From Psammoneis japonica (Eukaryota): 64,000 nt of DNA. Positions 13,188 through 61,777 of the stretch are shown one piece after another. The stretch is from positions 64,947 to 128,946 of the forward strand of contig QPGO01000113.1 in the NCBI GenBank assembly GCA_008632985.1, written 5' to 3'. Under the pieces are notes generated by a model. The model did not search any database. It was not told the DNA's origin and worked only from the letters and a program-made list of their open reading frames with translations. The translations under genes and the position numbers were made by a program. The number at the start of each line of letters is the position of its first letter. Positions within the stretch are counted from its first letter, which is position 1.

Positions 13188-13218
13188 TCCCTGCACTTCG
13201 CAGTTTGCAGTAAGCACC

Positions 13219-15585: not shown

Positions 15586-16262
15586 TTCATTGACCACTCA
15601 GTGGTTGGTGATTGCAGACTTTTTCGTGTCGGTCCGGCAGTCGGGCAGTCAGGGGGTCGGGCAGTCGGGGGGTCGGGCAATCGGGCAGTCGGGCAGTCCG
15701 TCCGAATTTGAAAGTGTGTCCCTCGGATTTTGAAATGGCATGGGGTGTTTGGTGCAAATGAATTGCACGGATTCTTGGAATGATCATTGAGGACATTAGA
15801 GGTCGTGGGGACATCCTAAAAAATCGACAAATTCCCTGCGACGGGTGTGTGGAACGTTTTTTCGGGAGAGCTCGAAAGTGCTGAAAAATTGGGATTGCCG
15901 GCATGGCATGTTGAAAAATGCACTCAGTTGTTGACAAAGACAGTTGATCGTGAATTCCATGCAAAACAGTCATGTGGGGGAAAACACATCGAACAACAAG
16001 TGAGTTTGTGCGATGCGCTGTTGTGGCGACAAATTGGAAAAAAGAGAGTCTGCGCACCTTGCTGCAGCCCCCAAAATGGCACGAGACATCAAACACAATG
16101 GTCATCCGTGTTGCCGGTGCGGTGGCCATGCCACTCTGCGCTGCGGCCACAATCTGCTGGCCATGGCAGCAGGGCCCTGCGTGCGTGCAGGCAACACAGC
16201 ATGCAACGGCACACACCCACAAAGAAAGACAAGTGGTCAATGCTCCCTGCAGGCCTGGTTTT
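15586..16262 (+). mobile_element. HINE/DINE-1-like element, copy 2 (TpA-depleted), with GTCGGGCA octamer array at ~15627-15700
   Basis: Reverse-complement homologue of 12528-13187; sub-TIRs at 15588 and 16232; terminal CCTGCAGGCCTGG-TTTT. Confidence 0.7.
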
Positions 16263-19600: not shown

Positions 19601-19903
19601 AACAAAAGGTGGCACAATCAATCCAGACATCCAGCGGCAAGGAGACTTGACAGTGACGTTAAATTCCTGCCGATGCCTGGCATTGAATGCACGCAGACTT
19701 GCCGATGTACGCAGAACATGTGCGGAGGTCCACGCAGAATTGAGGTGGCATCGTCTGTAAATCAACGACGACGATGGCGGTTGCTCAATGGGTTGACAAT
19801 GAGCAAGACTGTCAATCTGACAGAAATTGAAGGCAAATGGCAAGAATTCAAACAATGACTCCTTGCTGCTGTCCAAACAGCAGATGAGTCTCCGCTCAGA
19901 GAC
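16617..19903 (+). repeat. 86-bp direct repeat pair (16617-16702 and 19818-19903) bracketing a 3.1-kb segment
   Basis: TGACAGAAATTGAAGGCAA.TGGCAAGAATTC...CCGCTCAGAGAC occurs twice with about 3 differing sites. Confidence 0.9.
17440..18115. repeat. 42-bp tandem repeat, ~15 units (reads PPDWMPQVSHLETR on the - strand)
   Basis: Unit TTGGGGCATCCAGTCAGGAGGCCTGGTCTCGAGGTGCGAGAC repeated head-to-tail without spacers, degenerating towards 17440. Confidence 0.92.
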
Positions 19904-41077: not shown

Positions 41078-41432
41078 TGTTACACTTCACGAAGCAATAT
41101 GACTTCGAACACAGAGACTCCTCAACAACAACGCTTTTTGTGTTGTCGTGTGAAAGCGGGAGTGGTCTGGTGTCGTGAAATTCTACGTACGTCCTCATAC
41201 TGAATCATGTATGTACAGCCTACAGAAACTGCGGTACAAAAGGGCATATGTTTCTGTCGAACCGGACATTGCGACTTTTTCTGAAATGTTATGACCAAAA
41301 ATAAAATACATCCAGATCTGAATAATATTTTTATTTCGTCGTAGCAACAATTATTGTTTGCGCAGCTTCCGCGCACCTCTGTTTTCCCGCGCAAAATTTT
41401 CCCACGCGATGCGCCGATCATCGATTGCAGAC

Positions 41433-42117
41433 TTTCATTGACCACTCAGCAGTGTTGGTGGCTGCAGACTTTCATTGACCACTCAGTGGTTGGTGCTTGA
41501 AGACTTTTTTGTGGCAGTCCGTCGGGGAGTCCCTCACGCAGTTAGGGAATCCGCCACAATTTGAAGGTGTGTCTCCCGTGTGCATTTTTGAATGGCACAT
41601 GGGCTGCTCAGTGCAAATGAGCTGCTCAAATTCACGGAATGATCATTGAGGACATTAGAGTTTGTGGGGACTTCCTAAAAAATTGACAAATTCCCTGCAA
41701 TGGGTGCATGGAACTGTTTTTCAGAAGAGCTTGAAACTGCTGCAAAATTGGGGTTGCCGGCACAGCATGTTGAAAAATGCGCTCAGCTTTGTGTGAAGAA
41801 AATTTGCAACGAGTTGCACATGAATTGGTCAGATTGAAAAAAAAACATGTCAAACAACAAAAGTGAGTTTCTGCAATGTGCTGTTTTGGCAGCAAATTGG
41901 ACAAAAAAGAGTGTCCGTGCACTCTTGCCACAACCCCAAAAATGGCATGAGCCATCAAACACAATGGCCGTCTGTGTTGCTGGCGGCCCTGCCACCCTGC
42001 CGCTGCACAGGCACTGTGCAACAGCAACAAACAATGCAGGCACTGCATGACAGCACACACCCACACCCACAAAGAGAAAGACAAATGGTCAATGCTCCCC
42101 ACAGGTGCCTGGTTTTT
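41433..42117 (+). mobile_element. HINE/DINE-1-like element, copy 3 (diverged, TpA-depleted, duplicated 5' end)
   Basis: CATTGACCACTCAG at 41436 and 41473; TGGTCAATGCTCCCC...CCTGGTTTTT end; colinear with copies 1 and 2. Confidence 0.68.
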
Positions 42118-43461
42118 GCTGAGTGCCCACACCGCCAACCAATGTCAGAGTGCTGCATGATTGCCAGTGTTGAGTGTGAAGTTTTGTGGGACAAGATTTG
42201 GGGTTAAGAGCAGAGGCTCAAATTGCAAGCCAATGACACACAAGCCAAAAGTTGTTTTTCTTTGTTGTGCCTCCTCCTTTCCAAAAGGAAATGGCGCTCA
42301 TTCTCAAGCTCTTGGGGAAGAGCCAGTGCTCCAGCCAAAGGAAATTTCTTGGGTGTGCTGTGAACAACAAAATGTGCCTGCTGCACATGCTCACAAGACA
42401 TTGGCAAAAATGGCAGGTGGCCAACCACCCTTGTCATCTCCCCTCCCCTTGCTCCCTCTGAATGCGCGCTTCTCTCTTGTCTCTCTTGCTGCTGCACACA
42501 CCACTTTCTCTGGTTTCTGCCAGCAGAGGCATGTGTCGCAACACAGCCCACCTGGGTGTCCACAAACTCTTTTCCACAAGAAAAAGTTTCAAAGTTGACC
42601 AGGCCTGCCCATTTTCTCCAGAGCCCTGCTGGGGAGGGGGTGTGCTGGAGTGCTGCTGCTCTCCACACATGCCGTTGTTTTTGGCAGCTTTCAACACCCA
42701 CACTTTTCTGTCACAGAGACCTGCCACAATTCAAATGTTGGCCAGTTGATTGAGCATGGTTTGTGGCTGTCAATTGTGGATGCTTTTCTCATTTTCTTCA
42801 CTGTGTGACACACTCTCTCTCTCACTCTGTTGTGCTGTTGTTCATGGTGGTGCAGTGCTGCCTTTCCCACACTGGGCATGGTGTGCCTGGCTTGCCTTTT
42901 GCCATCTTTGCTGCTCTGAATGACAAAGCAATCCATTTGACTTTCCAACCTCAATCAATGAGCACCAAGATTTTTCTGGCCTTGTTTTGGAGCTTTTCAA
43001 GATGGTGACAACTCCTGCCTGGAATTCTCCATCTGATGACATGGTCAAACAATGGCAAGCAGAAAAAGCACATGCCAGAGCAGGTGGGTTCTTGTGGTGT
43101 GAGATGTGCTGGCTTGAGTTGGAAACAAATTTAGGGGGTTCTCAAATTGCAGAATTTGCTCTCACTGCTGGCTTGTAAAAAAATGTTGCACTGCAAAGAA
43201 AGTGCAACTGTGTTGTTGTTAAAAGAAGTGGTTGCACTCATTCTGCATTCACACTGTGATCACATTGCAACAGACCCTCTCTCTGGCAGGGGCACCCCCT
43301 GCACAGGGGCACTCTCCATGCAGAAGCACCCTCCTCACAGGATGAGAGCCTGCAGTGCATGCCAGAGACAAATTTCCAGCATCAATTTGGACTTTGATGG
43401 TGACCTTAAAGACAGTGTCCAAGATGACAACTGGAGACAAATGCCCACACAGAAAACCAGC

Positions 43462-46400
43462 TGCAGCACGCGACTGTCATGTGCATGTTTGTGATTGTGT
43501 GTCATTTGTGTGTCAATCGCACCACAGTCGTGGATGCGTGCAAAGGACAGAACGATCACACAGAGTTGATCGGATGTCGAGAATTGCAAATGCGATCGAT
43601 TGACGCGCACCCGGACAATCTGTTGTCACGAATGTGTTCTCCGAAAGGCCTTTTGTCTGTAGAAGCAGTGCAGAAGCTTTGGGCCATTGAGAACTCGTTC
43701 GGAGAAACCAAAAATCACAGAGCAAAATTCAATCTTATAATTTCCACTTTTCGCACACTGTTCTACTTTCGTTTGCACTCGTTCTTTGAGCACAGTGCAT
43801 TGTGCACACACACCACAGAAGGTAAAAAGCACGGAAAATGAAAATTTTAACTAGTGTGCCTTTGCAAATTCTTCTACAAACAGGAACGAATCGCATCAGT
43901 TCTGCTGGAATCGATTTCCGAGCGGAAGAAGCTCAAGCCGAGCAGTGCCTCAAGATGGAACGCTGTTTTTCGTCTGCCAGACAAGAGGATTCGCTCCAAT
44001 GCGGTCCATTCCAAGCACCCAAGGATCAAGGGCTCTCAAGTGCACCGCATTGTCAAAAAATCTACACCAAGTCATGGTTGCAGAGAATGCAAGTTCCGAG
44101 TCGATCAGGTCCGAGAAATGCATCTGGCATGCAAGGAGAGACTGTTGGAGAGTTTTTGGAGACCGAATCAACGAGCCTCGAGTCCAAGAGCAAGATGGAA
44201 CCGTTGGAAAGTGCCTCAAGAGTCTCACATCTCATGTCTTTCCAAGAATTGCACTTCAGAATCAGAGTTGTTATTTTCAAGACGATCTGAAGAAACCAGA
44301 GCTGCTTGACAGCAAGAAAGCCTCTGTTAGACCCAAGAGGTCAATGATGAGAGTCTGTGCGACCCTCAGATGGATTCTAAGTCGAATCTAGTGGGAAACC
44401 GAGCGCTGATTTATCAGCTGTCACTCGCACCGCAAGGATGGCAGCATCAGTCTACTGTCCAAAACAATCAACTGTTGCAACTCATCCTTGATGAGCTGAT
44501 TAAGTTTTGAGTCATCTAAAGGTCGTTCATGACGTCCGTGACGAAAAAACATGTCAACTCAGGCTCTGACAGCGCAGTTGGTTCCAAAATAAAAAAGGTT
44601 CCAAATTTGGTTCCAAAAATGGTCTCCCACATGGTGCCAGAACAATCCAAAGTGAACGCAAGGTCTCATCTTTGAAAAAAGAATGCCTGCGTCACGGATT
44701 GAAGCCATTCTAAAAATGAACTAGCAAAAGAGTGCAAGGGTGACTCTGAAAGAGACCCAAAAATGCGCCGTTCAAATGGCAATCGCACGTGGTCGCGTCG
44801 CGACAACGAAAATGCTGCTCGCAAAAAAAGAGATGAATGTCATGATTGATCAGGCGGTTCAAAAAACACTCAAAGCGAGTTCCTTGAACAAAGAAAAAGA
44901 GCACAAGGGCAAAGAATCAGATTCTGGTGCCCTCAGTGAAGAAAAGTGCCAATTTGATCGGATGATCCAGACTGAATCCGAAGAATGATTTTGGTCTGTT
45001 CACGAATCACATGCTTTGCTGGATGTCAGGAAGCCCAGAAAAAAGGCAGAAATAATTCACACCAGTCCAGGAGTCATCATTTGCATGAACACTTCCTTGG
45101 GAAAGGAGAGAAAGAAAAAAAGCATCTGCGTGTTCCTGTCGACAACGGAACATCGTCAACCACAATTTTGCGCAAATTCGTGCGAAAGTTGAGAACACAA
45201 GAATCCGCCACCAAAAACTTGGGAAACCAAGGGTGAGCTCTTTACGACTGACAGCAAACACCGAATTCAGTTCTCACTGTGCGAAATTTAAGGCATGCCG
45301 ACATGCAAACAGCATGTGTTGAAAACACCAAATTTTCTTCAGGTTCAAATGATGTGATCATGGGACGCGACTTAATGTCCAGTCCTGCAAGTCACATTGG
45401 ACTGCGCAAATGAAGAAATCCAATGGGAAGAAGCAATCACCTTATGAAGAATGTTCACACACTCTTCGATGCCGATGTTTTCAAGCTGAAAACCGATCAC
45501 ATTGAAAAACATGACGCCGTGAATGGAGTCAATGACGGAACCAATGGTCCTCGACTCACATTGTCACGCCATCGATCTTAATCAAGTGACAACTGCGGCG
45601 ATGCATCTAACCCAAATGAACACAACCAACTCAATCTTCTTCTTAAGAGGTTGAAATCGTTTTGAAAAGTTCCTCAGACGAATGCATGGGAAGCACCAGT
45701 GGATCTCATCGTGGAAAATCTGACGCGATTCCACGACGCGTGAGAACCTTCTCCTGTCACAGTCTTTGGAGGCGTCCAATCAAAAGGAGTTTGACCTGTT
45801 GTGAAAGATTGAAGTCTTGAGAATGAAATTGCTCTGAACAAGTCGCTCTGAGACTCATTGTCTAAAGAAAACAGGTCGAGTTCGACCGCACCCGACACTC
45901 AGAAGCTCAGCACAAGGTTCGTGCAGGTGGTGCATCCTTTGCCCAACATTCAGGAAATGCTGTTGAAGCAAGAACGTTTCATGTGTGTAATCCATTTGAT
46001 TCAAACATGGAATGCCACCATGTCAAATAAAAAAAGCACACGTCGTGCTCACACGAAAATCATGCCGTGGGGAGAAAATGAGCACTGTGGACTTCCAATG
46101 AGAATCCACAGAGCCCCAGACATTTTTGTGCAACACTTGAGTGAACTCATGACAGGTTTGAAGTTGTCAGAACGACTGTGTGTGATCGTTTGTGCCTGAC
46201 AAAAGTAACTTCAAAATGTCACCTGCACAAGCAACAGCTTAATGCGGCATTCAAACGACTGGAACAGTCGCTTAGAAGGTTGACAACAAAAGTCCTTCAC
46301 TGTTTAACTTGAAATAAACTGTCAAGACTTCCATGCGCAACGACATGCAATCGATTGCAAAGAAAATGGAGGCGATTCAAGCAATCGCAACATGAGAAAA

Positions 46401-48164
46401 ACGTAAAGAACACTGCGACATCTCGTTGTCATACGTTGCCATTGTCAAGACATGTAGTCTCAACGATCTCCTGCACAATGCCAGCCAAATTCACCTCAAC
46501 AAAGGTCAAACGGCAAAAGTGCAAGTACGGAACGAAAAGTCTCCGAAAATGTGGAGCGCATCAAATCAAAAACCATGTTGTTGTCATGCACGGATTTCAA
46601 CATCACACGTTACAACGGAAAAAAGAACTTCTGTCCACAGTGAAAACACTCACAAAATTCCGAAACATGCTGTTTGGCCAACAGATTTGTGCATGTGCGG
46701 ATCACAAGACACAATGGACAAAGTCACACGTTGACAACTTCAGTCCCGAATTAGAGTGCAACGAGGGCAAGGCGAACATCGTCGCGACAGACGCGATCAG
46801 CCGACTTGCCACAGAAAATTGAATCCTACGACAATGTCCTGCCGTTAAAACGGGATAAAGACATTCCCTCCAAATTGTCGGGCGCGACATGTCATACGAA
46901 CACTTTTCGTGGAGGCGAGCGAGATCGAAAAATGCTCATGTCACAAGGACAAAATCGCCTTTTTAAAGGACGATTTAGGAAAAAACAGTGACAGATTGGT
47001 GCACATTATACGCACCCACTTCACACTGGCAAAAGACAATCTCACAACACCCGCACGGTTGCATTGTACAATGCACGAGGCAAGACATTAAAATGTGCAT
47101 CATGTCGACACACGAGATGTGCCAAAGATCTAGAAAAAGAAAAGAAAAATGGACATTTGTCCACTTGGTGCACGAAACCAGTGCCTTCGGAATGACAAAA
47201 TGACACCGGTGTGTCAGAAAGAAACGTCCAAATGATGATTAAAATCCAACTGACAGATGGTTGAAGTGCAAAAAAAAAAAAAAATCCATGATGGAATTCA
47301 CAACCATCACAGGATTGATTGTCAAGACGAAATGGTCATGACATCTTTGACCATCGTTTGTTGTCACTTATGAAATGTGGCAGTGCAGCAGAGCAATGTG
47401 GCACACAAAGTGAGCCCGCCAAACTACATGAAATCCACAAGCAAGCAAGTGAACGCCACAATTGAGAGCGCACATTAAGTGCTGGGCACGATGCCATGCA
47501 CAATCGACATCAGGAAAAACACTCACTCCAGGACAATCAGTCCTTGTGTTCACATCAACAAGAACGTCAATGAGAACACTCGACGCAATGCCACATGTGT
47601 GCACATTAAGTGAGAAACAAACAATGTCACTCTCAAAAGACATTCGGAAATTGGAACGGCCCCATGTTGCCCACACAAAACAACAACAGTCATTGCCAAC
47701 GGCACAACACAGTGAAAGTGGAGACATCATTGACACTGTCGATGTCCGTCGAATGATCCACTTACAAATGACTCCAATGTGCAATTAGGGAGGCGAATGC
47801 AGCATGCGACTGTTGCACACATGTTTATGATCATGTGTCATTTGTGTGTCAATCGCACCACAGTCGTGGATGCGTGCAAAGGACAGAACGATCACACAGA
47901 GTTGATCGGATGTCGAGAATTGCAAATACGATCGATTGACGATGTTGACATCTTGCGTGTCAACAGCAATCGTATCCGGACAATCTGTTGTCACGAATGT
48001 GTTCTCCGAAAGGCCTTTTGTCTGTAGAAGCAGTGCAGAAGCTTCAGGCCATTGAGAACTCGTTCGGAGAAACCAAAAATCACAGAGCAAAATTCAATCT
48101 TATAATTTCCACTTTTCGCACACCACTCTACTTTCGTTTGCACTCGTTCTTCGAGCACAGTGCA
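43462..48164 (+). mobile_element. Full-length degenerate Ty3/gypsy element (copy 2): LTRs 43462-43799 and 47798-48164, PPT 47787-47797, TSD CAGC
   Basis: Paired TGCA...TGCA LTRs, AGGGAGGCGAA PPT, 4-bp TSD (43458-43461 / 48165-48168), fragmented gag/pol closely matching copy 1. Confidence 0.92.
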
Positions 48165-48399
48165 CAGCAGTGTCTCTTGCTCATGCTGCAGCTGTTTCTT
48201 CATCTCAAGATGCAGCTGCAGTGACAGGAGGCAAATCAAGGGGCAGCAATTGATTCTTTCTGTCTCTCTTGTTTCTCTTTTCTTGAGAGATGCAGAGTGG
48301 AAACGAGGTGTGATGTGGCATCCAAAAAGAGTGGTGGTGGTGCCTCTGAAAAAAATGATGATGAACAGCATGTGATGCCACAAGGACTCAAGATTCCAC

Positions 48400-50700
48400 A
48401 CTCCAAATTCTCACATTGAGCTCACAAAAGAGCTTGCACAACAACTGCAAATGACTGCAATTGTGGTTGCAACAATGGCGCTTGCAACCAAACTGACCCT
48501 GCATGGCAAGTGCCAACTGTGATCTGGTGAACAGTTGCAACCAATGTTTTGCAGCCATTCTCTGCAACTTGAGGCCCCTGGAAAAATTCATTTTTTGCCA
48601 GCCACAATCTGTCTCCACTGCCTTTGTCTCTCCTGTCACACTGGGAGCCATCCTTGCCTTTGTGGCTGGCACCAAAGCCAAGCAAGGAGAAATGCACAAT
48701 CACCTCTGCAGAGCACACTTGCAAAATTGTTTTTCAGCTGCCACATGGCCACATTGAAAAGAAGTTGAAAAGCCACAAATCAGCTGCATGTGCCTCTGTG
48801 CTCTCTCACACAATTGTTTTCCCATGTGCTGCTGCCATCAGCCAAACCTTGGCTGCCACCTCCACCTGCTCCTGCGCCAAACCTGTTGAGGACAAGCACG
48901 GCACAAGCACCAGCAGAGTGGTCGTTTGGTCTCAACAAGAACAAAACAAAACCCAAAACCCATTTTTAAAAGTGCTGCTGCACTTCCACCCTGCAGCTCT
49001 GGCAGCAAGCTAACCTGCACCACTGCACAAAGTGTGACAGCTGGCCAGGATTGGCACCACAGTCAGGTGATGCCATGGCAAAATGACTTGCAATGGTGTG
49101 CACACCTCCAGCAGCCATGGATGCTTGACTTGAGCATGAAGCCATGGCCAACCAGTTGTGCACTCCATGGTGTGCCAAGCAAGTGAGGTGAGCATCAATG
49201 ACCAAGTTCAACAGATGCAACCTCTCCTTTGTCAAATGGTTGTCTGCTCCAGAGTGAAGTTGTGCCTTGACTTCCACCTCAGCATTGCAGTGCTGAGGAA
49301 ATTTCCCATTCTTGGTTGGAATCATGTCCATGAACTTTGTGTCATCATGTTGTGAGTCCCGCAGTTGCCAACACAGTTGCTGCCCAAAAATTGACCAACA
49401 GACAGCTGATGCCAGCCAATGCTGTCTCCCAAGAATGGAGTGTTTTGAGGACACTGCAGCAAAGGCCATTGTCAACGCAGATCATCTCCTCATGAAACCA
49501 ACACTTGAGAGCAGATCATGAAAGCAAGTCACACAAGGATGCAAACATGTGAGCATCATCACACTTCTTGTGCAAGTGGCCTTGAAGGAACTTTCGACAC
49601 TGGGCTTTTGTTGCAGCAGGGGCACTGGAGCATCATGTGATCTCCATCCTCCACAGGATGTTGACAATGTGCACCACAGTCAGGCAGGTGGGATTGTGCT
49701 GACAAATGATCTTGTTCATTGGCGACAAATCTCAGATGAGCTCAATTGCACTGTGACTTTTCAACAAATGTTTTGTGATGCAAGCTTGGAGTGGATGGGC
49801 CAATCAACAAATTTGAGGAGGATGTCTCACAACCAGCCACACTTCTTCTTCTTCTTCACATGCTGATGTGCAAGGTGGCAGGGCTGGAGAAGCTTCGCAC
49901 CAAAGAAAACAGGCTTGTGTTTGAAAGAGACAGAAAAATCTTGGGCAGCTGAGTTTGCAGAGCAGCAAGACACATGTGGAGCTGGAAGAGCATCCCCAGG
50001 TGCAGGCCTTGGTGACCACTTGCCAACTTGTCATCTTGGACATTTTGCTTGGCAGGAAGAGACAAAGACATGTGCAGGGCGGCATTTCATCATCTTTGTG
50101 TGCTTTGACCCAATGGACATCAACTGAAGAAGTGCCAGATTGTTGGCCCGCTGTTGATGACTCCACAATTTGCTGAAAGGAAACAAACACACTCGCAACA
50201 TGATGCCAATGAAAACGGTCTCTGTCTGCACTGGATGACTCCCCATTTTCAGGAGGTGGAGGCAGCAGGGCACCACAAAAGTCAAAAACATTCTGGACCA
50301 ACACAGAGTTGTCATCACAGTGCATGTCAGTGCCTCAGAGAAAAACCTGATTGCAAGATCCCACAAGTCAAAAAAGGATCTAAAGAAAGGAAAACAGTCT
50401 GGAAGCTGCAATGCTCTCAACTCTGCCAGCCTGCCAACACATGGGTTGCAATGTTTGCAGATGATCTGAGCAAGCATCCCAGCAACTGGCCAACAGCTTG
50501 TCTGGCACATCTGCCCTGTCTCCAAACCATCAAATTGAAGTTGATGGCAATCCACACACAGCTTGCATTTGACACTGTTCCCAATCAATTTCTTTAACTC
50601 AAGACACTCTTGTCAACAGCAAGAAGTGTCATGAACTTTTCCATGTCCCCGCAAATGCAAGAATCAACAGTTGGAAAAGCCACCACTTCTGGACACTGAC
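48400..50700 (-). mobile_element. Highly degenerate RNase H-containing non-LTR retrotransposon remnant
   Basis: VHWVKAHKDD (HWVKAHQD-like) and CD.NS.LV RNase H-like motifs, with a downstream IPT...P.C...E...HL knuckle-like segment; both TA and CG are nearly absent. Confidence 0.45.
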
Positions 50701-51227
50701 TGAACATGTCAAGAATCAAGAACAAAGATCATGATGCATCAACAGTTGTCATTGTTTGCTTCTCTTGTTTGCCACTTGCTTCAAAGGCGAATTTCAAATT
50801 GAGGAAAGGGCCCGCGTTGCACAAATCATCTGCCGGTGAGGCTCGGTCTACAGGTGTGCACTGTGCTCGAAGAACGAGTGCAAACGAAAGCACAACGAAG
50901 TTCAAAAGGTGAAAATTGTGAGAATTGTTTCTCAATGGCCTAAACCTTTTGTACTGCTCCTACAGACAAAAGGCCTTTCGGAGAATATGATCGTGACGAC
51001 AGATTGTCCGGATACGATTGACATTGACACGTAAGATGTCAACATCATCGTACGATCGCATTTGCGATTCTCGACATCCAATCACTTCTGTGTGACTGAT
51101 CTGTACTTCGTACGAACCCACGATTGACGTACGATTGAAATATACTTTTATTTAATATATACATATACATATATAATACGTACATGACAACGCATATTGC
51201 ATTCGCCTCCCTAATTGCACATTAGAG

Positions 51228-54200
51228 TCAGTCGTTAAACGGTATTATTCGACGAATATTGACAGTGTCAATAACGTTACCGCGTTTGATCTGTACTGTG
51301 CCATTAGTATGTACCGTTGTTATTACATACGGTCCAACATAGGGCTGTTCTAATTTTTGCGAGTCTTTCTCGAGTAGTATCTTTTCTCCTACTCTGTACG
51401 TGTAAGGAGTACGTCGAGCATTCTCTCGAGCGTTATTTTTATTTATGATTTCTTGTTTTCGCTGCTGGATTAATTTCCAGTCCGCGACATGTTGGACGTT
51501 AAATATCATGTCTCTATTGAAGACTAGTTGTCCTGGTGTAGCTTGCGTAGTAGTATGATACGTAGAACGTACTGCAAACGCTACCGCTGATAGTATTCCA
51601 GCGAAAGGATCCTCAGCATCTAGAGGTGTATGTTGCAAATCAAATGTACGGAGCATGTTCCCCAGTGCTTGATGTACGCGTTCAATAATTGCGTTTGCTT
51701 GTGGATTTCGTGTAGTTGTGGGCTTGACTTTAATGCCACAATCATCTTGCACCATTTCTCTAAATTGGTGTCCGATGAACTCACTTCCACGGTCACATGC
51801 AATTGACGATGGCCAAGGATGTCTGCTTGGCCATGTTCGTTCTAACAGTCCAGCCACAGTTGTGGACTCCTCATTTGGGATTTCCACAACTTCAAACCAT
51901 CCGGTTGCTGGATCGATCATAGTTGGACATTTCAGGACTGGGGGGTTTTCCTTTCCCTCACGACGCACTTTGCATGGCCCAATGAGGTCCACACACAGTC
52001 GTTCCCATGGTGCGGATTCTGCACACTCAGGAGGTAAATGTCCACATTTCTTGTGTTTCTTTTTGAATTTTTGGCACGTCTCACATCTCGACATGCATTT
52101 TCGTATGTCTTCACGCAAGGTGGACCACCACAGGTGTTGTGAGATTGTTTCTTCTGTTCGATCCATGCCAGGGTGAAGAAGGCACGTGTGATGCCAATCC
52201 ATCACTGCCTTTTGTGACGTCCTCGGGACGACAATTTTGTCCTTGTGACATGTGAGCAACCGGTCTCGCTCGCCTCCACGAAAAGTCTTTGTGTGAAACG
52301 TCTTTATTTGACAATTGGGAGAGAATGTCTTTGTCCCGTTTTTGTTCACAATCAAGAACTTTGTAATTTAACGGAAAGACATTGTCGCAGGATTTTGGCA
52401 GGACCTTTTCAGCTGGCTCTTCTGTGCTGAGGGTTTCCACAGGTTCTATTTTCTTCATGGCAAGTCGGCCAATCGCGTCTGCGACAACATTTGCCTTGCC
52501 CTCAAGGTGTGTCATTTTGGGACTGTGTTCTTCCATTGTCAGACGCCAACGCATGACTCTGTCCGTTGTGAAATTTTTGTGTGTGAGATTTTTGTGATCC
52601 GTGTGTGTGTTTGTCTGTTGGCCAAACAGCACATTGCGGAACTCTTTCAATGTCTCCACTGTGGACAATGGCTCTTTTTCCATTGTGGCACAACGCGTCT
52701 GCGCTCCATTCAGCTTGCGGCTGTAGAAGGCAATTGGTCGGTTTTTCTGAGCAATGACCGCCCCCAATTGAGAATCACTGGCATCGGTGCATGTCTCAAA
52801 GGGGACATTTCGGTCCATTGCCACTTTACTTGGGTAGAAGTGAGTTTGGCTAAAGGAGCTAAAACATGAGATCGTCGAGGCCACATGTCTCGACAGCAGT
52901 TGATCATGCCGACAAAGCGTCGCAATTCCTTGCGAGTTTTAGGAGTTGCGATCGCGTGAATCGCTTCTGCTTTTTTTGGAATCGGACTGATGCCCTTGCG
53001 GGTGATGTGAAAGCCCAGACAGTCCACTTCGGGTTTAGCGAAAAAGGACTTCTCGGCGTTGACCTTCAATCCGGCTTGTTCTAGGCGCAAGAACACCGTT
53101 TCAAGCTTCTTGAGGTGGTCTTGAAAATCACTTTTTGTAAGACACAACACATCGTCAATGTAAGTTCTGACAAACTCCAGACCTGCCATGAGCTCACTCA
53201 TGTGCTCTTGGAAAACATCTGGAGCTCCACAGATTCCCATCGGGAGTCTGCAGCACTCACATTTGCCCCAAGGCATGACGATCGTGCACAAGCGACGCGC
53301 ATGCGGCGTCAATTCGATGTGATGGCATCCCATGTTTAAATCTAGGGACGTTGCATGCATGAAGCCTTCAAGCTTCTGTGGCACATCCTGAATGTTGGGT
53401 GGAGGAAACGGAGTGCAAATTAACCTCTCACTTGGCTCACGAAAGTCGGGTGAGAACCGAACTCTACCATTTTTCTTGGGTTGAATGAAGGTTGGAGCCG
53501 CCCATTCAGAACAATTTGTTTTTCTTGAGACTTTCAACTTGCATGGTCTTTCAACCTCCTTACGAGCAGTCGCCTCCAAGGCTTGTGGCACGGGAAATGG
53601 TTTGGCATGATGCGGACTCACGCCCGATTTCAACTTTAAATCCACCGGTTTCCCGGTCCATTTGCCTGGAGAACCATCGAAAAGGTTTTCAAATCTTTTT
53701 AAGAGGAAGTTCAGCTGCTTCTGCTCTTCAGGAGTTAGATGAGCAGCTGCTGCGGTCACATCATTGAGGTTTGCAGCGTGACAGTCTGAGTCAAGGATCC
53801 GATTGACCCTGTCATTAAGACCAATCACTGCATGAGATTCCTCAATGTGATCGGCAATCAACTTAAAAACATTGGCATCGAAGAGTGCACCAACATTCTT
53901 CATGGGAGCAGTTGCATCTTCCCATTTAATCTCTTCATTCGAGAAGTCCAATGTCATCCCAAGACTTGACATTAAGTCGCGTCCCATGATCACATCATGA
54001 CGACTCGAAGAAGAAGGGGAGTTGTCAACATGTGCCGTTGTTTCAATCATCTTATGTTTGTCAAATTCGGGTGAGGAGAATTGGATCTTACATCGACTGT
54101 CAGTCGTGAAGAGCCCTCCTTTGGTTTCCCAGAGTTTGGTGGCGGATGCTTTTGTTCTGAGTTTCCGCGTGAATTTGCGCAAAATTGTGGTTGACGATGT

Positions 54201-54356
54201 TCCGCTGTCGAGGAGAACGCGCAGAGGCTCATTTTTCGCCTTGCCCAATGAAGCATTCACATGGGCGACAACTGCTGGACTAGTGTGAATTACTTTGGCC
54301 CTTTTTCTGGGCTTCCCAATGTCCAGCAGAGCGCAAGACTCCTCTTGCAGTGCAAG
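51228..54356 (-). pseudogene. pol: pol of gypsy copy 3 (PR-RT-RH-IN), frameshifted and hypermutated
   Basis: LLDSG protease, YIDD RT, TDAS/IAFYSRKL RNase H, H...LHPG..C..C and D-D-E integrase, GPY motif. Deletion/frameshift near 52810 and frameshift near 52300. Confidence 0.9.
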
Positions 54357-55513
54357 TCATTCCTCAGAATCACTGCGCATCATTTTTTCAAACTGACAAT
54401 TTTCCTCGTCAAGGGCATCAGAATCACAATCTTTGCTCTTGTGTTTTTTGTCATTGTTCGAAGAACTCGCTTTGAGCATTTTTTGAACTGCTTGGATCGC
54501 CACAGCATTCAACTCTTCTTTGCGAGCGGCGTTGTCGTTGTCGCGACGAGACCACGTGCGATTGCCATTTGAACGGCGCCGTTTCGGGTCGGGTTCACAG
54601 TTCCCACGGCGTTCTTTTGCAAGTCTTTTGATCGACCAGCACTTGTCCGTGTTATGAGTGGATTTCTCGCATGAAATGCACCACTTCTCGGACTGAGATT
54701 TTTCGGTGCCATGTTGGTGACCATTTTTGGAACCACGTTGGGAACCACTCTTGGCTTTTGATGCAGCACCGCCACTGCCATCAGCCTTGGCATGAATGCC
54801 ATCAAATGTGTCTTCTGCGACCTCTGGGCGCTCCAAGAACTCAACCAACTCGTCACAGGCATGTTTCAAAATTTCGAAACCCTGGACGGTCGACTGACGC
54901 TGCCACTTTCGAGGTGCAAGGTTGAAGAGGATGTCCTTGAGCTCGTCGTCCTCGATCTTCTGTTCCTTCCCAAAGGGAGGATAGAACTTGAGGTCTTCGT
55001 TGACTTCCTGGACCCAAGCAGCAATTTCGCGTGCTTTCATGGACTCCGGCTTCTTGAGATCACGACGCAAACAACGTTTCTGTGCCGAAAGTGCGTTCTT
55101 GGGAAACACATGCCTCGTGAGATGTTGCAGGCATTTCTCGAAGCTTCCTTCCGCAGATTCGTCTTCAAGGTTCGCTGCCGCATTCTCGAAAGCACGTAGA
55201 GCGTCTCCTTGAAGTAACATGTGCATGAGACGAAACTTGTCAGATTGCTTCCTGATGTTCTGGCCCACTGGAAGTTGATCGTAGCTCTTGAGAAATTCGA
55301 TGAACTTGGGGACACCTTGTTTCTTGTAGTGCTCAACATTGATGGTGCAGGTGCGGCTATCCTTCTTCTCGGGATGAAAACGTTGCTCCATCTTGAGGTG
55401 CTGGCTCGGTTTGAGGCTCTTCGGCTCGGAGTTCGATTCCAGCGGTTGAGGGACGATTTTCTCCTGCCTTGACGAAGTTTTGGCATTGGTTGCATGAGGT
55501 GAAAGCTTCATCT
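54357..55513 (-). pseudogene. gag: gag of gypsy copy 3
   Basis: LLQGDALRAFE...LTRHVFPKNAL..QKR(Y>C)LRR.LKKP capsid-like segment and WC..C....HNT..C knuckle; TA-type missense changes. Confidence 0.8.
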
Positions 55514-58500
55514 TGAACTTATTACCTTCTGTGGTGTGTATACACAATGCACTATGCTCGAAGAACGAGTGTAAACGAAAGTATAACGAAGTTCAAAAGG
55601 TGAAAATTATGAGAATTATTTCTGCGCAATCATTTTGGGTTTCTCCGAACGGGTTCTCAACAGCCTAAACCTTTTGTACTGCTCCTACAGACAAAAGGCC
55701 TTTCGGAGAATATGATCGTGACGACAGATTGTCCGGATACGATTGATATTGACACGTAAGATGTCAACATCATCGTACGATCGCATTTGCGATTCTCGAC
55801 ATCCAATCACTTCTGTGTGACTGATCTGTACTTCGTACGAACCCACGATTGACGTACGATTGAAATATACTTTTATTTAATATATAGATATACATATATA
55901 ATACGTACATGACAACGCATATTGCAGGTGAACCGCGCCGGATCGGATCGACGGATCGGATCGCGTCAGAATTCCGTTAGTCGACAGGTGGAACCGGATC
56001 GGATCGCGGATCGGATTCGACATTTTGATGAGTCGCAAAACGACATAAGTTTCAAGATTCCAAACTCCCAAGAACAACAAAGCGCTGACAACAGCGAACA
56101 ACAAGAAGTGTGGCCATGATGCTTCACATCTTGTCATAACGTGACGATATGACGACAGAACCATACTGTTATTACTGCTATACATACATATGAGACCGCA
56201 TCATTGAGAATCGTTGTCACTCAGTGTTCGCAGCAACGCTAAGGAAGAAAAAGCTATCACTTTTGTAATTAGGAAACTAATGCAAATGTTTTCGTATTGA
56301 AATTTCGAATTAAATAATAAATACTTGTTATTTTGCTTATTCAATGTTTCTCCAACAAATCTATACGGCATTATCGGTTTGACAAGCTATTCTATTGCCA
56401 TGCGACCTTTCTCATCGTCATTTCGAGCATGGGAAGACTTTGACTATAATGCTCAGAATGTTCCTTGCCCTTATGGCTGAATCTTATGCCGTTCTGTGTC
56501 ATAATCGTGTGATGTTGTGCCATTGTCGTGATGACGGCACGGAATCTTCAAAATTGGATCCGACATCCGATCCGAGATGGCGGATCAGTCCCACGAAGGC
56601 CACGGATCGACTTTTTGACTCGATGGACTAACATTTTAATGGGTTATGAAGGAGTCGATCCGGCGATCCGATCCGGCTCGGTTCACCTGTAGACCGAGCC
56701 TGAGACCTTGCACCTTTGCAACTTGTGCCAGATGTGCTGCCATTCTGTCTCATCTGGTTCCACAAGACAAAGACCAAATGTGTCAAGACTCTTTGCATTT
56801 TAACTGCCTTCATTCTTGGCTCAACAAAAGAAAAACACCCAGGATGGAAGAATCTGACCGGCGGACCTTTGCAAAGCAGCTGCTTGAGCACTCTGATGAA
56901 TGATGGGCTGTTCTTGAAGCTGCAAAAAGTCCTTTTCTGCCTGGACACTTTCTTGTCTTCACTTGGAACATCCTCGTCCAATGATGTTTCTGCTGCTGCC
57001 ACAATGGCAAAAAAGTGTCTCCATTGGAGAACTCCAATTGTTTTTGCCAACAACAGTGCCCAGCAGGGGATCTGTGGCAGGGTGTCATGTGAGAGCTGTG
57101 TTGTTGGAAAATGAAATCTTCCTGCTGATGTCGAACTGATCAAGATTGTCTGGGATCATGGGATGGAACAACCCAACACTGCCAGCACCAAATCCAAAGT
57201 CCTCCATGGAAGTTAGTTTTCTTTGGGGCTGGGCACAAAAAATTGCACGCGCATGATCTCAAAGCAAGTGGGCGGCAGTTGTGATTTTCTGGGGGGCTGC
57301 CGTGTTCTGTTGCCTGGCATCCAAGCAAGTGCAACCTTTTTTTTGACAAGTTTTTTCAAGAGACTTGAGTTGCACATGGTTTTGGCAACATGTTTGTCAG
57401 TTGACATGATGGCATCACATGCCTGGCCAGTCTGATTGAGTGCATTGATGGATCCCGCATGGCGACCCATGATTGGAACAATGACCATGCATGGCAAAAC
57501 ATCAAGGCAGTTTTTCTGACCAGCTGGCAGCATCTTTTTGAAATCCATGTGTGCTTGATGCCTGCATCATTGACTCTGTTTGCTTTTGTGCACTTTTTGT
57601 TTGACCCGTGGAGGAGACAGGTTGTTTCAGACCAACTGCGTTGTTGATCAACACCAAACAAAAAATCCTTCACAAACCAGAAGGAAAGGGCAGCTGTTTC
57701 ACCCACCAGAACAAGATGAGCAATTTCCACTTCATGGCTGTGTTGCTCCCCAAAAGCACGTTTGTTCTCAAAATGGCCTGTCGGCTTTGGCTCTGGGAAC
57801 TTGTGCGGGTTTGTCCATCAAATCATGTGTTGGTGCCACATGTTGTTTGTGCACAGCTTTGTGCACACACTTGTGTGGATTGTTGGTGATGAGACGGACA
57901 GCACATGTTCAACAGGCTTCAGTTCTTTGCTGCTGCTGTTGTTGTTGCTGCACGCAGCTGTCCAGTGCTTGGATTTTGATTGAGTCAAATTCGATTGTTC
58001 CATTTGGCATTCTGCTGACTGGTTTTTGTCATTTTTGCCATTGTTCTCTTGATGGTTGATCGCATCAGAATCTGCTTGAGCATTTGCATCACACACCCCA
58101 TTGCTGACCAACAATTCATTGATCAGGGCAAAACAACTGCCGAACGAAATTTCCCTTTTGTCAACAAGAGAACAAAAAAGCTCATCTTTCTGAGCTTCCA
58201 ACAGTGTCAAGTCTCTTGTTGTCACCTTCAGAGCCCTGGCATCATCTTCTGCAGCTTCCTCCATGCTGCAGCACAGGTGCTTTTTGTCAAGAGTGTTCAA
58301 CAGCAAATCTTTGGCACTCTGCTCCAGTTCCAAGTTGTTGCTGTTCTTGTTGGTTCTTGATCAAAGAACATTGACTGCAGCTGGTTCGGCAATGTTTTTT
58401 GCTTCATTCCCAGCACTGCAAAGCACAGCACTGGAAAAGGAAAACAAGCAAGAAGGAGCCAAGGTTGGAACAAACAAGGGCTCAACAGGCATTGAGAATT

Positions 58501-59046
58501 GGAGAAGGAGACACACAAGAAGAGATTGAGCAAGTCAAAGATGCAGAGCAATTTGACAAAGTGTGGTCCAAGGAATTTTGGGAATGCATTGACAGCCCAG
58601 AAGCCACCATGATGGACAGGATGGGCAACAAGACAACAATGGAGGACAATGACAACATTGATGAAGAGGAGTTGTGTTGTGTGGAAGCATCGCAGACAGC
58701 AGCAGTGCAGCAATTGGAGCGATGATTCACAATGAAAGGTGAGACAAGAAACAGCTGATTGCCAATGTGAAAAGGGAGCCAAACAGCAAACAAAAACCTG
58801 AAGCAACAGCACACTGTGCAGTGGGGTTGCATTGAAGTCCTCCATGTTGCATGACAACCAGACATGGTGGGCACAGCTGTGTGAAAAGTCAGCACACCAG
58901 CGTGACAAATGCCCAAATTAAAATGAGCTGGGACCCACAGTTCTTGCAGCAGAGTGTGGTGCTGGCTTGAGGTGAAAAAATTCATTTTTTGCCATCCACA
59001 CTCTGGCAGTTTTTGGAGTTGGTGTTGCGCGCATCTCCACCATCTT

Positions 59047-60897
59047 TGTTGGAACATCAGGGTGCAAAGAGTGATTTTTGCAGAACAGACAGACAATGTT
59101 GCAGTGAGCAATGCACTGTGAGGAGCATTGATGCCATTGTGCTCACAACTCATGTCAGTCAGGGGTCTTGTGCTCACTTTTTAGCTTCTGCACCCAGTTG
59201 ACATGGTGGTGGCAGCAATGGCAACAAAAGTGCATTTGCAATCCATGTGGCAAGTCAGGGTTGGTGAGACTGAGCACACACCAGCTGGCAAGTGGCAAAA
59301 TCTCAACACAGAAGCTGAAAAGGACCAGCTGGGAAGTTGTCAGAAATCCAAAAGGCGCAGCTCATGTCAATGGATTGTGGCACAAACAAGCTGGCTGGAT
59401 GAAGGCAGAGAAACAGTCTCTGGCAGAGAACCTTGCTGTGAGGAAGCTGTCAAGGGTCTGCCAAAAGAGGGTGTGGCAAAGTTGTGTCAGACTGGGAAAA
59501 ACATCAACTTGAGCAAGGATTGCGCAGCTGAGTGCAGAAGCACAAAAGATTTGAAGGAGTGTGTGCATGACACTCATTGCCAAGTTGGGTTGACAGGCAG
59601 ATGGTCACACAGAGACCACAAGAAAAACAAGCTGGCATGTCAGAACAATGTTTGGGTCAGCAACAATGTGCAGGTGCTGGTGTCTCTCAGGCAGGAGAAC
59701 AAACCAGCAGAGGAGCCAGAGTGTCCATTGAGCACAGCTGTGCTGGAGAAGGAAAAGGCAATCTGGGAAAGCAATGCAGTCATTGTGTGAAACAGGATGC
59801 AATCTACAAGACACAGAAGGTGAAGACATTTGGCACAATTGTGGGACAGTGCATGAAGGCTGTCCATCACAAGAGGTTGAAGCAGAGTGGCAGAGTTTGA
59901 GAGGGTCACAAAGGAGTGGGGCATGGCTGGGCACTGTTGAAAAAGCTCAAGTCAATCTTTTTTGAGATGCACATGAGAGAATCTGCATGAATGTCCAGAC
60001 AGCAGTTGGTGCTGTTGGGAATCCTCAAGTGGATCTTGTTTGAAGCAAGCAAGAGAATGTGCTTGCATGTCCAGGCTGCCAAGGCTTGGAAGGAGTTGGT
60101 CCTCATTCATCAGGATGAAGGAGAGGTGCTTCAAGATTGTTGCAATTGTTGGCTTGTGAGCATCCTTGAGATGGTGGAAGGGCCCTGCAGCAGACTTGTC
60201 CCAGAAGAAATCACCAAGAAAGAAGATGGGTTGGCAAAAGTGCTGATGACAACCAGAAGAATGAAAGGAACAAGTTGTTCATGGTGCTGCCAGTCAAGGG
60301 CACCAAGGAGTGTTGATGCATCTTGAAAAACCTGCGCCAGCAGTTCACACTGGGGATCAACAATTGCCCCAATTTGGCTGAGGAGGCACTGCAGGTGTTG
60401 GACACATGCAGAGCTGACAAGAAACATGAGCTCATGAGCTTTGTGCAAAATGAGAAGAAGCAGCTCAAATGCTGGAAATGTGACAAGGTTGGGCATGTGA
60501 AGAGGAACTGTCATTTGCTCAATGATGATGATGATCATTTGTCAGTGGAGTTGGAACATGTCAGCCATTGGGATTGACAAGGCAGTTGACTTGGTGTTGG
60601 ATGAAGTGGTGGTTTCCAACTGCCATCCTCCTCTGAGGAGTGTGTTGGAACATCAGGGTGTGAAGTGGTTTTTGCAGGACAGACAGACAATGTTGCAGTG
60701 AATGATGCACTGACAAGTGGTGTTGATGACTTGACAATTTTGTCTTTGCAACTCATGTTGAGTTGTGGGTCTTTTGCTCACTTTTTAGTTTCTGCACCCA
60801 GTTGACAGAGAAACAGCAGTGGTGTCAACAGAAATGTGTTTGCAGTCTACACAGTGAGCCAGGGATCTGCAAAACTGAACACACACCAGCTGGCAAG
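59047..60897 (+). mobile_element. Degenerate gag-only copia (CoDi-like; TR-GAG-like) element with ~245-bp LTR-like repeats (59047-59291, 60643-60897)
   Basis: Direct repeats start TGTTGGAACATCAGGGTG; GAGGAGTG PPT precedes the second; gag remnant TLGINN(Y>C)P...EALQVL and CWKCDKVGHVKRNC knuckle; no room for pol. TSD not found. Confidence 0.55.
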
Positions 60898-61208
60898 CCA
60901 CGCATGTGCACCATAGAAACACGTGCACATGTCACCAGGATGTCTCCACTCAGCCAAAAAAGCTTTGCCCAATGCTGGGATCACCTGTTGGCTGGACGCC
61001 ACAAACAGCAAGTTGCTGCCTTGTTGGGGTGTGACTCATTGATTTTCCAGGTTGAGCTGCACCACACTTGCAGTGCTGCAACAATCTTGTTGGAGGGACA
61101 AAATCATTTTGTCTGTTGGGACATTGCAAAGCCATCTGATGGAAGTGTGTTGCGATCTCTGAGTTTTGCAAATTCCATCGATGACAACAAGCAAGAGCAC
61201 TGCTCAAC

Positions 61209-61635
61209 AGACTGGCTCTGCAAAGGTTTCAGATTCTGAGAAATTTGGTTTGCAGGAAGCTTTGCAAAATGTGACCTCTCCTGCACGAATCAACATTGAG
61301 AAAGAGAACCAACACGTGCAGCAAGTGTTTCCGCTTGAAGGCAAAGCAAATGTGAGTGCCAGAAACAAGGAGTGCTGAACCAAGATGAACAGACTTCAGA
61401 GTCACTGCTCGCGACTTGGGGTGTTCCAACCTGCTTGCCGCACTGATGGTCTGTCGTGTACAACAAGACGGCCATTGGCTGGCCCACAATAACAAAGAAA
61501 CAAACCCAGAAGACAATGTTTGGCATGCCAAGCAGCCTCTGAAAAAAGTACTTTGTGATTGCCACCAGAGGAAACATCATGCCAACAAAGGACCAAGGGC
61601 GGATTACATGGAAGGGGATGCAAATGAGAAGATCG
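61209..61635 (-). pseudogene. Degenerate tandem duplicate of the DGAT1 3' coding end and 3' flank (template 61653-62072)
   Basis: Reads LLICIPFHVIRPWSFVGMMFPLVAITKYF...NIVFWVCF...GQPMAVLLYT, with indels relative to the gene. Confidence 0.85.
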
Positions 61636-61777
61636 GACCAGCGCCACTCAAAAGACTGGAGAAAGGTTTCAGATTCTGAGTAATCTAGACCGCAGGAAGC
61701 CTTGCAAAACGCGACCTCTACGTACATCAGCATTAGGAAAGAGGACCAACAAGTAGCATTTCGGCTCAAAGATAAAA

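Follow-up and report, generated by a model that had tools for sequence, protein, structure and literature searches.

In a 64,000-nucleotide stretch of the Psammoneis japonica assembly (GenBank GCA_008632985.1, contig QPGO01000113.1, positions 64,947 to 128,946; the whole stretch is hereafter called the window), a fast, regional, TA-destroying process is caught in progress inside a young Ty3/gypsy long terminal repeat (LTR) retrotransposon, which we call element A. This was the core inference of a preliminary description of the same DNA, and it is right. A process of this kind has very recently been described in the chlorarachniophyte Bigelowiella natans, and the present locus adds a new lineage together with detail on borders, sequence context, order of events and targets. 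The model that best accommodates our observations, and to which we assign a probability of roughly 0.58 when all of its parts are taken jointly, is that element A inserted recently into a miniature inverted-repeat transposable element (MITE) lying in a mutation domain that is old and exhausted, within a diatom-like genome, that a regional process directed at TpA mutated the interior of the element in place, that the edges of the mutated patches are chromatin borders, and that the chemistry is the deamination of adenine.

TA loss and its borders inside element A

Element A lies on the minus strand, with gag followed by protease, reverse transcriptase, RNase H and integrase; the Pfam families RVT_1, RT_RNaseH, Integrase_H2C2 and rve are matched in order along that strand, and 1348 relatives were found at E<=1e-10. 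Its LTRs end in TG..CA and are flanked by a GGTG target duplication (50853-50856 on the left, 55927-55930 on the right). The point of insertion is the left terminal repeat of the MITE, the right end of which (about 56660-56699), once reverse-complemented, matches 50840-50856 joined to 55927 onward. The coordinates of these and all other features are collected in Table 1.

The pair of LTRs records the action of the process after insertion. Compared with the 5′ LTR, the 3′ LTR differs at 50863, 50881, 50891, 50893, 50918, 50927 and 51022, and each time a TA of the 5′ LTR has become TG or CA in the 3′ LTR, which reproduces exactly the seven TA-destroying substitutions that had been listed before; the further differences, namely a C/G change (51162), a site that is TG in one LTR and CA in the other (50936-7) and a 34-bp deletion, were all recovered as well. 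Loss among the 32 alignable TA of the 5′ LTR is complete to the left of 50937 (6/6) and almost nil to the right of it (1/26; Fisher p=7.7e-6), and none of the 22 CpG common to both LTRs differs, including 4 inside the fully mutated outer segment. Since the two LTRs were identical at insertion and now differ, the process acted on element A after it had inserted. Providing the assembly is right, it is certain that within the 3′ LTR the outer 80 bp lost every TA after insertion and the next 265 bp almost none, which shows that mutation in place can produce a border as sharp as about 5 bp.

Borders were placed with a two-state hidden Markov model (HMM) on TA versus TG/CA sites, which sets them at 50936/50941, 51731/51734, 55514/55520 and 56690/56701, those inside element A being sharp to 5-30 bp. 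Counts of TA follow the same outline, with 0 in 50857-50940, 74 in 50941-51731 and 42 in 51761-55358 before TA becomes dense again from 55520, and a spared patch of 791 bp adjoins a TA-poor interior of 3.8 kb. The TA-rich zone with a switch near 51720-51735 that had been reported from inspection is thereby recovered, and the TA map and the HMM also agree with the earlier statement that the 5′ LTR and the MITE were spared, TA being kept across the leader, the 5′ LTR and the MITE (55520-56690). The same switch is visible in the integrase protein, where Tyr occurs solely at residues 270, 322, 324, 343 and 347, giving the tail of five Tyr and the Tyr-free head that had been noticed originally. The observed/expected ratio (O/E) of TA is 0.14 in the integrase head, below all 73 relatives compared, and 1.12 in the tail, a value equally high in 4 of the 73.

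Direction of the change

Two LTRs alone give no direction, and the patches could in principle have arisen with the opposite polarity, a process resembling the repeat-induced point mutation (RIP) of fungi having converted CpA to TpA by C to T changes and made the TA-rich patches, with the TA-poor parts being original. We give this reading practically no credence, and the conserved Tyr residues of the pol genes provide the most direct reason. We used 80 related DNA loci for comparison and counted a column as conserved if 20 or more of these loci cover it and at least 80% of those have Tyr. At the 23 such columns of the pol interior, element A has 11 Cys (TGY), 7 His (CAY), 3 Tyr and 2 Phe. Within the integrase, 28 relatives from public metagenomes, 50-60% identical to it, carry an invariant Tyr where element A has His59 (CAT), Cys132 (TGC), His183 (CAT) and Cys210 (TGT), and conserved Tyr is retained in the TA-rich tail, such that a Tyr invariant in 28/28 relatives has given way to His or Cys where TA is scarce and is kept where TA is abundant. 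Single TA to TG/CA changes account for 10/24 mismatches at conserved columns in the head and for 1/13 in the tail, and the TA-type changes in the head include Leu to Ser/Pro, Lys to Glu across codon borders and Tyr to Cys/His.

The same direction is obtained from a MITE-like repeat unrelated to element A, with one copy in normal DNA (R1) and two in depleted domains (R2 and R3), and with 22 TA in the aligned core of R1. Sites polarised by an outgroup run 19:0 and 14:0 for loss of TA, and changes in reverse, by which a TG/CA site of R1 would have turned into TA in R2 or R3, number 0/69. At 10/62 outgroup-polarised TA sites, one derived copy carries TG and another carries CA. Furthermore, the TA-poor state is the odd one, since TA O/E is at least 0.57 in 79/80 related loci, and the TA-rich tail retains an open frame without the TAA and TAG stops that RIP would create. 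From these comparisons of sequence we regard the direction of change, TA to TG/CA and thus A:T to G:C, as proven; the TA-destroying process that was originally suspected is supported by the replacement of Tyr with Cys or His, by the outgroup copies and by the 10/62 sites with both outcomes.

The opposite polarity does draw some support from the spared tail, the TA content of which is high and which bears three private changes from CA/TG to TA (51686, 51713 and His322Tyr). These three are probably ordinary C-to-T transitions. Residue 322 is His in 25/28 relatives and Tyr in element A (51404), and at 51686 and 51713, where element A has TA, about 85% of the family depth has C. A TA-creating process in the spared tail was also considered and rejected, as the frame is open and 4/73 relatives are equally TA-rich.

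Two further routes to polarity were set aside. Double differences of TG versus CA were not accepted as proof of a TA ancestor, as a CpG ancestor yields the same pair, and sites were counted only where the outgroup has TA. Gypsy copies B and C, both of which lie in the window and are older relatives of element A, are too diverged to serve as outgroups for its interior (10-25% transversions, gag about 50% identical) and were used for the LTRs only. In the protease and reverse transcriptase open reading frame (ORF), 1/12 conserved Tyr columns is retained; the only Tyr left is the Y of the catalytic YIDD (TAC, 53160-53162), possibly by chance survival.

One metagenome locus, L020:181-1319 (1518 bases), is the sole strongly TA-depleted locus of the 80, with a TA O/E of 0.19, a CpG O/E of 0.04 and a TG/CA value of 1.67. 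Its protein reads WCH for WYH, GPH for GPY and RHPWP for RYPWP, with Tyr changed to Cys or His at four invariant positions. The same process seems, as far as this sequence indicates, to be active in at least one further source.

Depleted domains and the behaviour of the process

Element A is one part of a larger pattern. The HMM divides the window into 7 depleted and 7 normal segments, with about half of the window depleted, and so upholds the regional action with sharp borders that had been put forward. The Pfam-matched host-type genes (Dus3, LRR, PH and CBM9) all lie within normal segments, and a search for the Pfam origin of ORFs in depleted domains gave 0/47 ORFs of at least 130 aa with a credible match (E<=0.1). 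Depleted domains reach a TA O/E of 0.01-0.1, and the long ORFs that they contain are likely there because TAA and TAG stops have been erased. Long overlapping ORFs in multiple frames fill 15551-21197, 25086-28272 and 56701-61677 (e.g. 16844-18442 with 17373-18953; 25688-27721). The older depleted domain to the left of element A is extended by the HMM to 50936; with its counterpart on the right (56701-61677) it encloses the MITE, and hardly any TA or CpG is left in either part. Copy B, which belongs to a subfamily other than that of element A, is spared from 2828 through its 5′ LTR.

The process acts on integrated chromosomal DNA, and at element A it did so after insertion. Besides the LTR elements, the arms of a foldback repeat and the MITE-like repeat are TA-depleted, the latter probably being a DNA transposon and so having no RNA copy step. 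Both strands are hit independently and about equally, with 11 Cys versus 7 His and a TG/(TG+CA) of 0.38-0.61 per kb; when all TG/CA sites of 14 regions were put to a runs test, no strand-coordinated runs were detected (|z| up to 2.2, no clustering). A hint of strand-coordinated tracts from 15 hand-polarised sites (6 runs vs about 8 expected, z about -1.2) was not supported by that test and was discarded. Targeting depends on where a sequence lies and not on how often it is repeated: R1 escapes, R2 and R3 do not, and in elements A and B sparing extends to the LTRs of greatest summed read depth. We identified no clearly single-copy target among the depleted domains, which lack a recognisable origin, and the repeated R1, MITE and LTRs are spared.

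The preferred target is 5′-TAY-3′ (T-A-pyrimidine). Compared with the 1331 TA found elsewhere, the 223 TA that survive in depleted domains are enriched for TTAA (4.3x) and CTAA (2.6x), and ATAT (0.04x), GTAC (0.27x) and ATAC (0.31x) are under-represented; TAG is relatively resistant to loss. The strand that was hit reads TAY at 25/33 unique asymmetric polarised sites (p=0.005), or at 36/46 with duplicates kept. Tyr codons (TAY) are ideal targets, which explains the Tyr-free proteins.

Loss of TA and decay of CpG are separable and the former is the faster, as is evident from R2, in which the losses amount to 86% for TA and 30% for CpG (10/33), set beside R3, in which they are about 73% for each (24/33 CpG), from the interior of element A, the CpG O/E of which is 0.83 compared with 0.17-0.67 in the old domains, and from the 80 related loci, many of which are CpG-poor with normal TA. 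The CpG losses in the depleted repeats fit the decay of CpG to TpG/CpA that builds up in silenced DNA, for which cytosine methylation would be responsible. The interior of element A has lost about 80-87% of its TA, equivalent to about 0.75-1 hit per target base. Among the roughly 279 non-TA bases of the LTR pair there is a single substitution, which amounts to about 0.002 per lineage. If the interior was mutated after insertion, the rate at TA relative to background would be of the order of 10^2-10^3, a figure with a very wide interval since it counts one event, and one of similar magnitude to the 1000-fold excess measured in B. natans. That the process runs far faster than background mutation, as had been suggested, is supported by 1 non-TA substitution and 0/22 CpG changes against the loss of 6/6 outer TA.

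Origin of the patches

In the model that we favour, a TpA-specific transition process on chromosomal DNA would target discrete transposon-derived regions and spare host genes, and the mutation in place would take in the interior (51734-55514) together with the outermost 80 bp of the 3′ LTR, which have lost about 80-100% of their TpA, the remaining parts of the element being essentially intact. The borders would be the edges of a targeted chromatin state that began in the coding interior and is continuous with the flanking state, and LTR-proximal DNA would be converted last. Elements A, B and C may then form a time series, in which the interior is mutated first, the mutated region merges with its flanks and the LTRs follow last. 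We lean, by a little, towards the patches reflecting in-situ protection of LTR-proximal zones, and to judge from the sequence pattern the borders may be chromatin borders. This model has the merit that one process suffices. Copy B, from another subfamily, repeats this layout, its interior being depleted and its 5′ LTR spared, and the state of the LTR matches the state of its outer flank in 5/5 LTRs of the window: the 5′ LTRs of A and B are spared beside normal DNA, both LTRs of C are depleted beside depleted DNA, and the 3′ LTR of A is depleted only at the edge that adjoins depleted DNA. Integrase mismatches that are of neither the TA nor the CpG type stand at 13/100 in the head and 12/96 in the tail.

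Several observations weigh against this model. A TA at 50849 survives between the depleted flank and the mutated edge of the LTR, and the MITE keeps its TA as far as 56690, where only 10 bp separate it from flanking DNA that is fully depleted, neither of which would be expected of simple spreading. Copy C is without a spared LTR, and protection of the LTRs, if real, must therefore be temporary. Two frame changes and an in-frame stop, the TGA between gag and pol, interrupt the interior and are compatible with a mosaic origin. The TA O/E of the tail falls in the top 5% of relatives, and at 51686 and 51713 the spared tail has TA where the family has CA, with the relatives backing the family state at 51686. 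Family variation was read at the best-supported 40 of 448 variable places. The idea, present in the preliminary description, that mutated domains can spread in from the flanks is thus plausible in so far as the LTRs follow their flanks in 5/5 cases, and is at odds with the surviving TA at 50849 and with a MITE unaffected by the depleted right flank. The further suggestion made there, that DNA which is open or transcribed escapes the process, is likewise no more than plausible. Within the window, the protected zone recurs in one family copy, through the spared 5′ LTR of copy B, and does not in copy C, both LTRs of which are depleted.

The patches would be explained differently if element A were a mosaic, its interior having been mutated in an older copy and joined to unmutated ends by template switching or gene conversion, with breakpoints at about 51732 and about 55517 and with mutation at the present locus confined to the 3′ LTR and, there, to its outer 80 bp. 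This is unlikely in our estimation, while accounting naturally for an interior that is broken by two frame changes and a stop between pristine ends, and for the sole certain in-place change adjoining the depleted flank, as simple spreading would have it. Donors do exist, the family being abundant, with a summed depth of about 6000-28000 on the element and about 75 on its flanks (from sequencing contigs of three runs of one study, with no RNA run among those listed, in which summed contig depth is a rough guide and not a copy number). Family variation at the places read in these contigs consists of transitions only, with high summed depth on element A, and most of the family carries CA at 52669-70 and 53544-5, two places at which the element itself carries TG, pointing to several separately mutated lineages. 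A mosaic nevertheless requires two breakpoints and a donor that was transcribed and packaged despite heavy mutation, a donor that must also be young given the interior CpG O/E of 0.83, and no surviving donor is visible at the private alleles 51959, 51968 and 55033, which are near single-copy depth (about 75-100). Private variants common to both LTRs (50998/55723) show that the LTR part of the patch did not come from a typical family member, and copy B, of a different subfamily, would have had to acquire the same layout independently. An artefact, in which the assembler switched between mutated and unmutated family copies inside element A, is improbable. A high-copy family and short Logan contigs, none of those listed spanning element A, would favour such a chimera, and the sole run that matches the stretch may be the source data of the assembly itself. 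However, the target duplication and the reconstituted MITE tie both ends of the element to one insertion, the integrase frame is unbroken across the border, and a 1244-base contig of single-copy depth covers the junction of flank and LTR, including 50863 and 50881, with 0 differences. The border internal to the LTR at 50937/50941 is just 80 bp from unique flank, and copy B and the repeats R1, R2 and R3 show the same biology without a chimera.

The agent in our favoured model would be a deaminase of the TadA/ADAT type acting on DNA and converting adenine to inosine, as proposed for B. natans, and adenine deamination is probably the chemistry. The T-A-pyrimidine context is compatible with an ADAT2/TadA-like deaminase, at least as judged from neighbouring bases, U-A-C being the context of the transfer RNA substrate of bacterial TadA. 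Retroelements edited by deaminases are known in animals, and element A might by the same token have been edited before integration, by an ADAR-like enzyme on RNA or by a deaminase on complementary DNA (cDNA), the edited copy then being integrated. The two LTRs differ, however, so the changes came after integration; on the coding strand A-to-G (11 Cys) and T-to-C (7 His) are both present; and the hits extend to the foldback repeat and to the MITE-like repeat, probably a DNA transposon. TAG is relatively resistant, whereas ADAR favours a 3′ G, and the preference for T-A-pyrimidine together with this resistance disfavours an ADAR-like enzyme. A-to-G change beside a 5′ U is, as stated in the discussion of the report on B. 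natans, the neighbour preference of ADAR. In the main text of the same report the B. natans events took place while the cells grew vegetatively, in integrated DNA that was silent (bioRxiv 10.64898/2026.01.13.699255). We consider editing before integration very improbable. A different chemistry, to which we give a minor share of belief, would be oxidation of the T of TpA, in which a TET/JBP-type dioxygenase would generate 5-hydroxymethyl- or 5-formyl-uracil, and the oxidised base would mispair with G and turn T to C. TpA is self-complementary, so that T-to-C and A-to-G look alike in sequence, and the context bias reads equally well as R-T-A; moreover, 5-hydroxymethyluracil occurs at TpA in dinoflagellates and 5-formyluracil is mutagenic. 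Against thymine oxidation may be set the resemblance of the T-A-pyrimidine preference to the U-A-C context of TadA. An ADAT2-like deaminase is the only proposal published, as found in the main text of the report on B. natans (bioRxiv 10.64898/2026.01.13.699255).

Relation to known systems

The main text of Mettrop et al. (bioRxiv 10.64898/2026.01.13.699255) reports TpA-targeted hypermutation in mutation-accumulation lines of B. natans, with 231/302 new substitutions located in two integrated viruses, a giant virus and a virophage. According to the same text, changes in the viral regions were nearly all A:T to G:C and those that were GC-biased were all on TpA, at a rate of about 6e-7 per site per generation, 1000x baseline, in some lines only. 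It further describes 124 clusters in the genome that are TpA-poor and rich in CpA+TpG, an enrichment of reverse transcriptase and DDE transposase domains among low-TpA coding sequences, and a proposed ADAT2-like deaminase. At the level of sequence, the process in our window agrees with Bigelowiella hypermutation wherever the window allowed a clear comparison. As in that account, TpA becomes TpG or CpA on both strands, the changes keep to delimited stretches of foreign DNA with normal mutation elsewhere in the genome, and the rate lies orders of magnitude over baseline, measured in B. natans and inferred for element A. Unlike B. natans, which belongs to the Rhizaria, the host here is diatom-like and thus of the Stramenopila; indeed the best named relatives of the host Dus3 ORF (13027-14343; best match 62% identical) are all diatoms (Mayamaea, Amphora, Seminavis, Epithemia, Nitzschia, Eucampia and Chaetoceros). 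In place of the viruses of the published account, the process here strikes LTR retrotransposons, MITE-like repeats and a foldback repeat, depletion is near-saturated at a TA O/E of 0.01-0.1 compared with the 0.45 given there for the viral region, and borders lie inside one element, with a sharpness of 5-30 bp. The main text of that account has nothing on a T-A-pyrimidine context, on a CpG decay that comes later or on a footprint of Tyr to Cys/His, and in it the words CpG, LTR, gypsy, retrotransposon, trinucleotide, flanking and context occur 0 times; its figures and supplements may bear on context (bioRxiv 10.64898/2026.01.13.699255). Full-text searching of the literature found no report of the TpA signature in diatoms or in any lineage besides B. 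natans; the one match to 'TpA' in a diatom paper (PMC4504042) proved to be 'Tpase'.

The process also shares features with three better known systems. Like fungal RIP, it is a transition hypermutation at the level of DNA with a dinucleotide context, acts on both strands, leads to the decay of transposons and to skewed dinucleotides, and may run slightly past the edges of elements. Its polarity is the opposite, as RIP turns CpA into TpA and the present process destroys TpA. RIP, moreover, is triggered by duplication and strikes all copies over a length threshold, whereas here the repeated R1, the MITE and LTRs of A and B are spared; and RIP is premeiotic and strikes all at once, whereas the process here appears gradual, if the precedent of B. 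natans in its main text is a guide. With ADAR and APOBEC it has in common deamination-type transitions, a neighbour preference and clustering in retroelement copies, although those enzymes act on RNA or on pre-integration cDNA and on one strand, and the changes here are post-integration, on both strands and include elements that are not copied through RNA. Finally, methylation-driven decay of CpG yields the same end products, TpG and CpA, in the same domains (CpG O/E 0.17-0.67 in the old ones), but the loss of TpA is separable from it and faster, with a CpG O/E of 0.83 in the interior of element A and 0/22 LTR CpG changed.

We put forward, tentatively and at less than even odds, that diatoms have a DNA-editing defence of the Bigelowiella type, in which an adenine deaminase with a T-A-pyrimidine preference, addressed by chromatin, would start in the coding regions of transposons and join neighbouring domains, the LTR-proximal barrier being temporary. 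If true, its presence in two distant branches of SAR (stramenopiles, alveolates and rhizarians) would point to an old and widespread mechanism of eukaryotic immunity, one that mirrors fungal RIP by erasing TpA, Tyr codons and TAA/TAG stops rather than creating them, and young elements such as A would record its addressing rules at base resolution. Finding the signature in a diatom-like genome, saturated, over about half of 64 kb and on ordinary transposons, turns a single-species curiosity into a candidate for a widespread defence. Element A is young, its LTR pair serving as an internal clock and its relatives giving the ancestral state, and it is because both are available that this locus shows the sharp borders, the position dependence, the TAY context and the order of TpA before CpG, which were beyond the reach of the mutation-accumulation data. 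At element A that order is loss of TpA first, with decay of CpG later. There are practical consequences too: the loss of Tyr from proteins of depleted domains, together with spurious ORFs, misleads gene finders and homology searches, and dates derived from the divergence of LTRs will be far off the mark if TpA sites are not masked.

Features of the window

Table 1. Coordinates of element A, its insertion site, related gypsy copies, repeats and depleted domains, in positions of the window.
Feature	Positions	Strand	Remarks
Gypsy copy B	1..3387	-	cut by window start; interior 15-2823 depleted; 5′ LTR 3037-3387 spared beside host-type DNA
R1, copy of ~680-bp MITE-like repeat	12528..13190		normal DNA beside Dus3 gene; TA kept
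R2, same MITE-like repeat	15586..16261		in depleted domain; 19/22 R1 TA are TG/CA
Left older depleted domain	41355..50839		TA fraction 0.039, CpG O/E 0.51; holds gypsy copy C
R3, same MITE-like repeat	41463..42115		in depleted domain; 14 (plus 2 now CG) of 22 TA lost; 24/33 CpG lost
Gypsy copy C	43513-48166	+	both LTRs depleted
MITE left end (terminal inverted repeat)	50840..50856		holds left GGTG copy; TA at 50849 survives
3′ LTR of element A	50857..51201	-	34-bp deletion relative to 5′ LTR
Outer (U5-side) segment of 3′ LTR	50857..50937		6/6 TA now TG or CA; 4/4 CpG kept
TA-rich spared patch	50941..51731		remaining 3′ LTR and last ~170 integrase codons; TA = 0.415 of TA+TG+CA
Integrase ORF	51228..52367	-	Integrase_H2C2 and rve; frame unbroken across spared/mutated border
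TA-depleted interior of element A	51734..55514		TA = 0.061 of TA+TG+CA; CpG O/E 0.83
RNase H ORF	52111..52938	-	frame differs from both adjoining ORFs
Protease and reverse transcriptase ORF	52710..54356	-	1 Tyr in 548 residues
Gag-like ORF	54357..55592	-	no Pfam match; in-frame TGA separates it from pol
5′ LTR of element A	55548..55926	-	spared; spared zone starts 55520, 28 bp into leader
MITE body and right end	55927..56699		spared; opens with right GGTG copy
Right older depleted domain	56701..61677		12 TA in 5 kb, CpG O/E 0.17; no Pfam match

A TGA stands on each side of the MITE (50837-50839 and 56700-56702) and could be a 3-bp target duplication of the PIF/Harbinger type, if the TWA target rule, which we take to hold for such elements, is applied to these flanks. 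A target that had once been TAA would need the same change in both copies, and an original TGA is more likely.

The Dus3-like gene (13027-15027) consists of two ORFs in the same frame, with a stop at 14341-14343 and about 32 unmatched residues between the Pfam Dus matches, and the gap looks like a short intron and not like a broken gene. For a host ORF of 1020 aa there are leads only, diatoms being the commonest taxon among them and the protein being NOL11/Utp8-like (Protein Atlas).

The foldback repeat at 31941-35383 has arms (31941-33215 and 34121-35383) that are 88% identical about a palindromic centre (33529-34122) and is TA-depleted; the arms differ at 38 CpG-type, 19 TG-versus-CA and 3 TA-type sites. 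A depleted domain also contains a tandem array (17423-18123), the self-matches of which, at offsets of 84, 126 and 210 bases, point to a repeat unit about 42 bases long.

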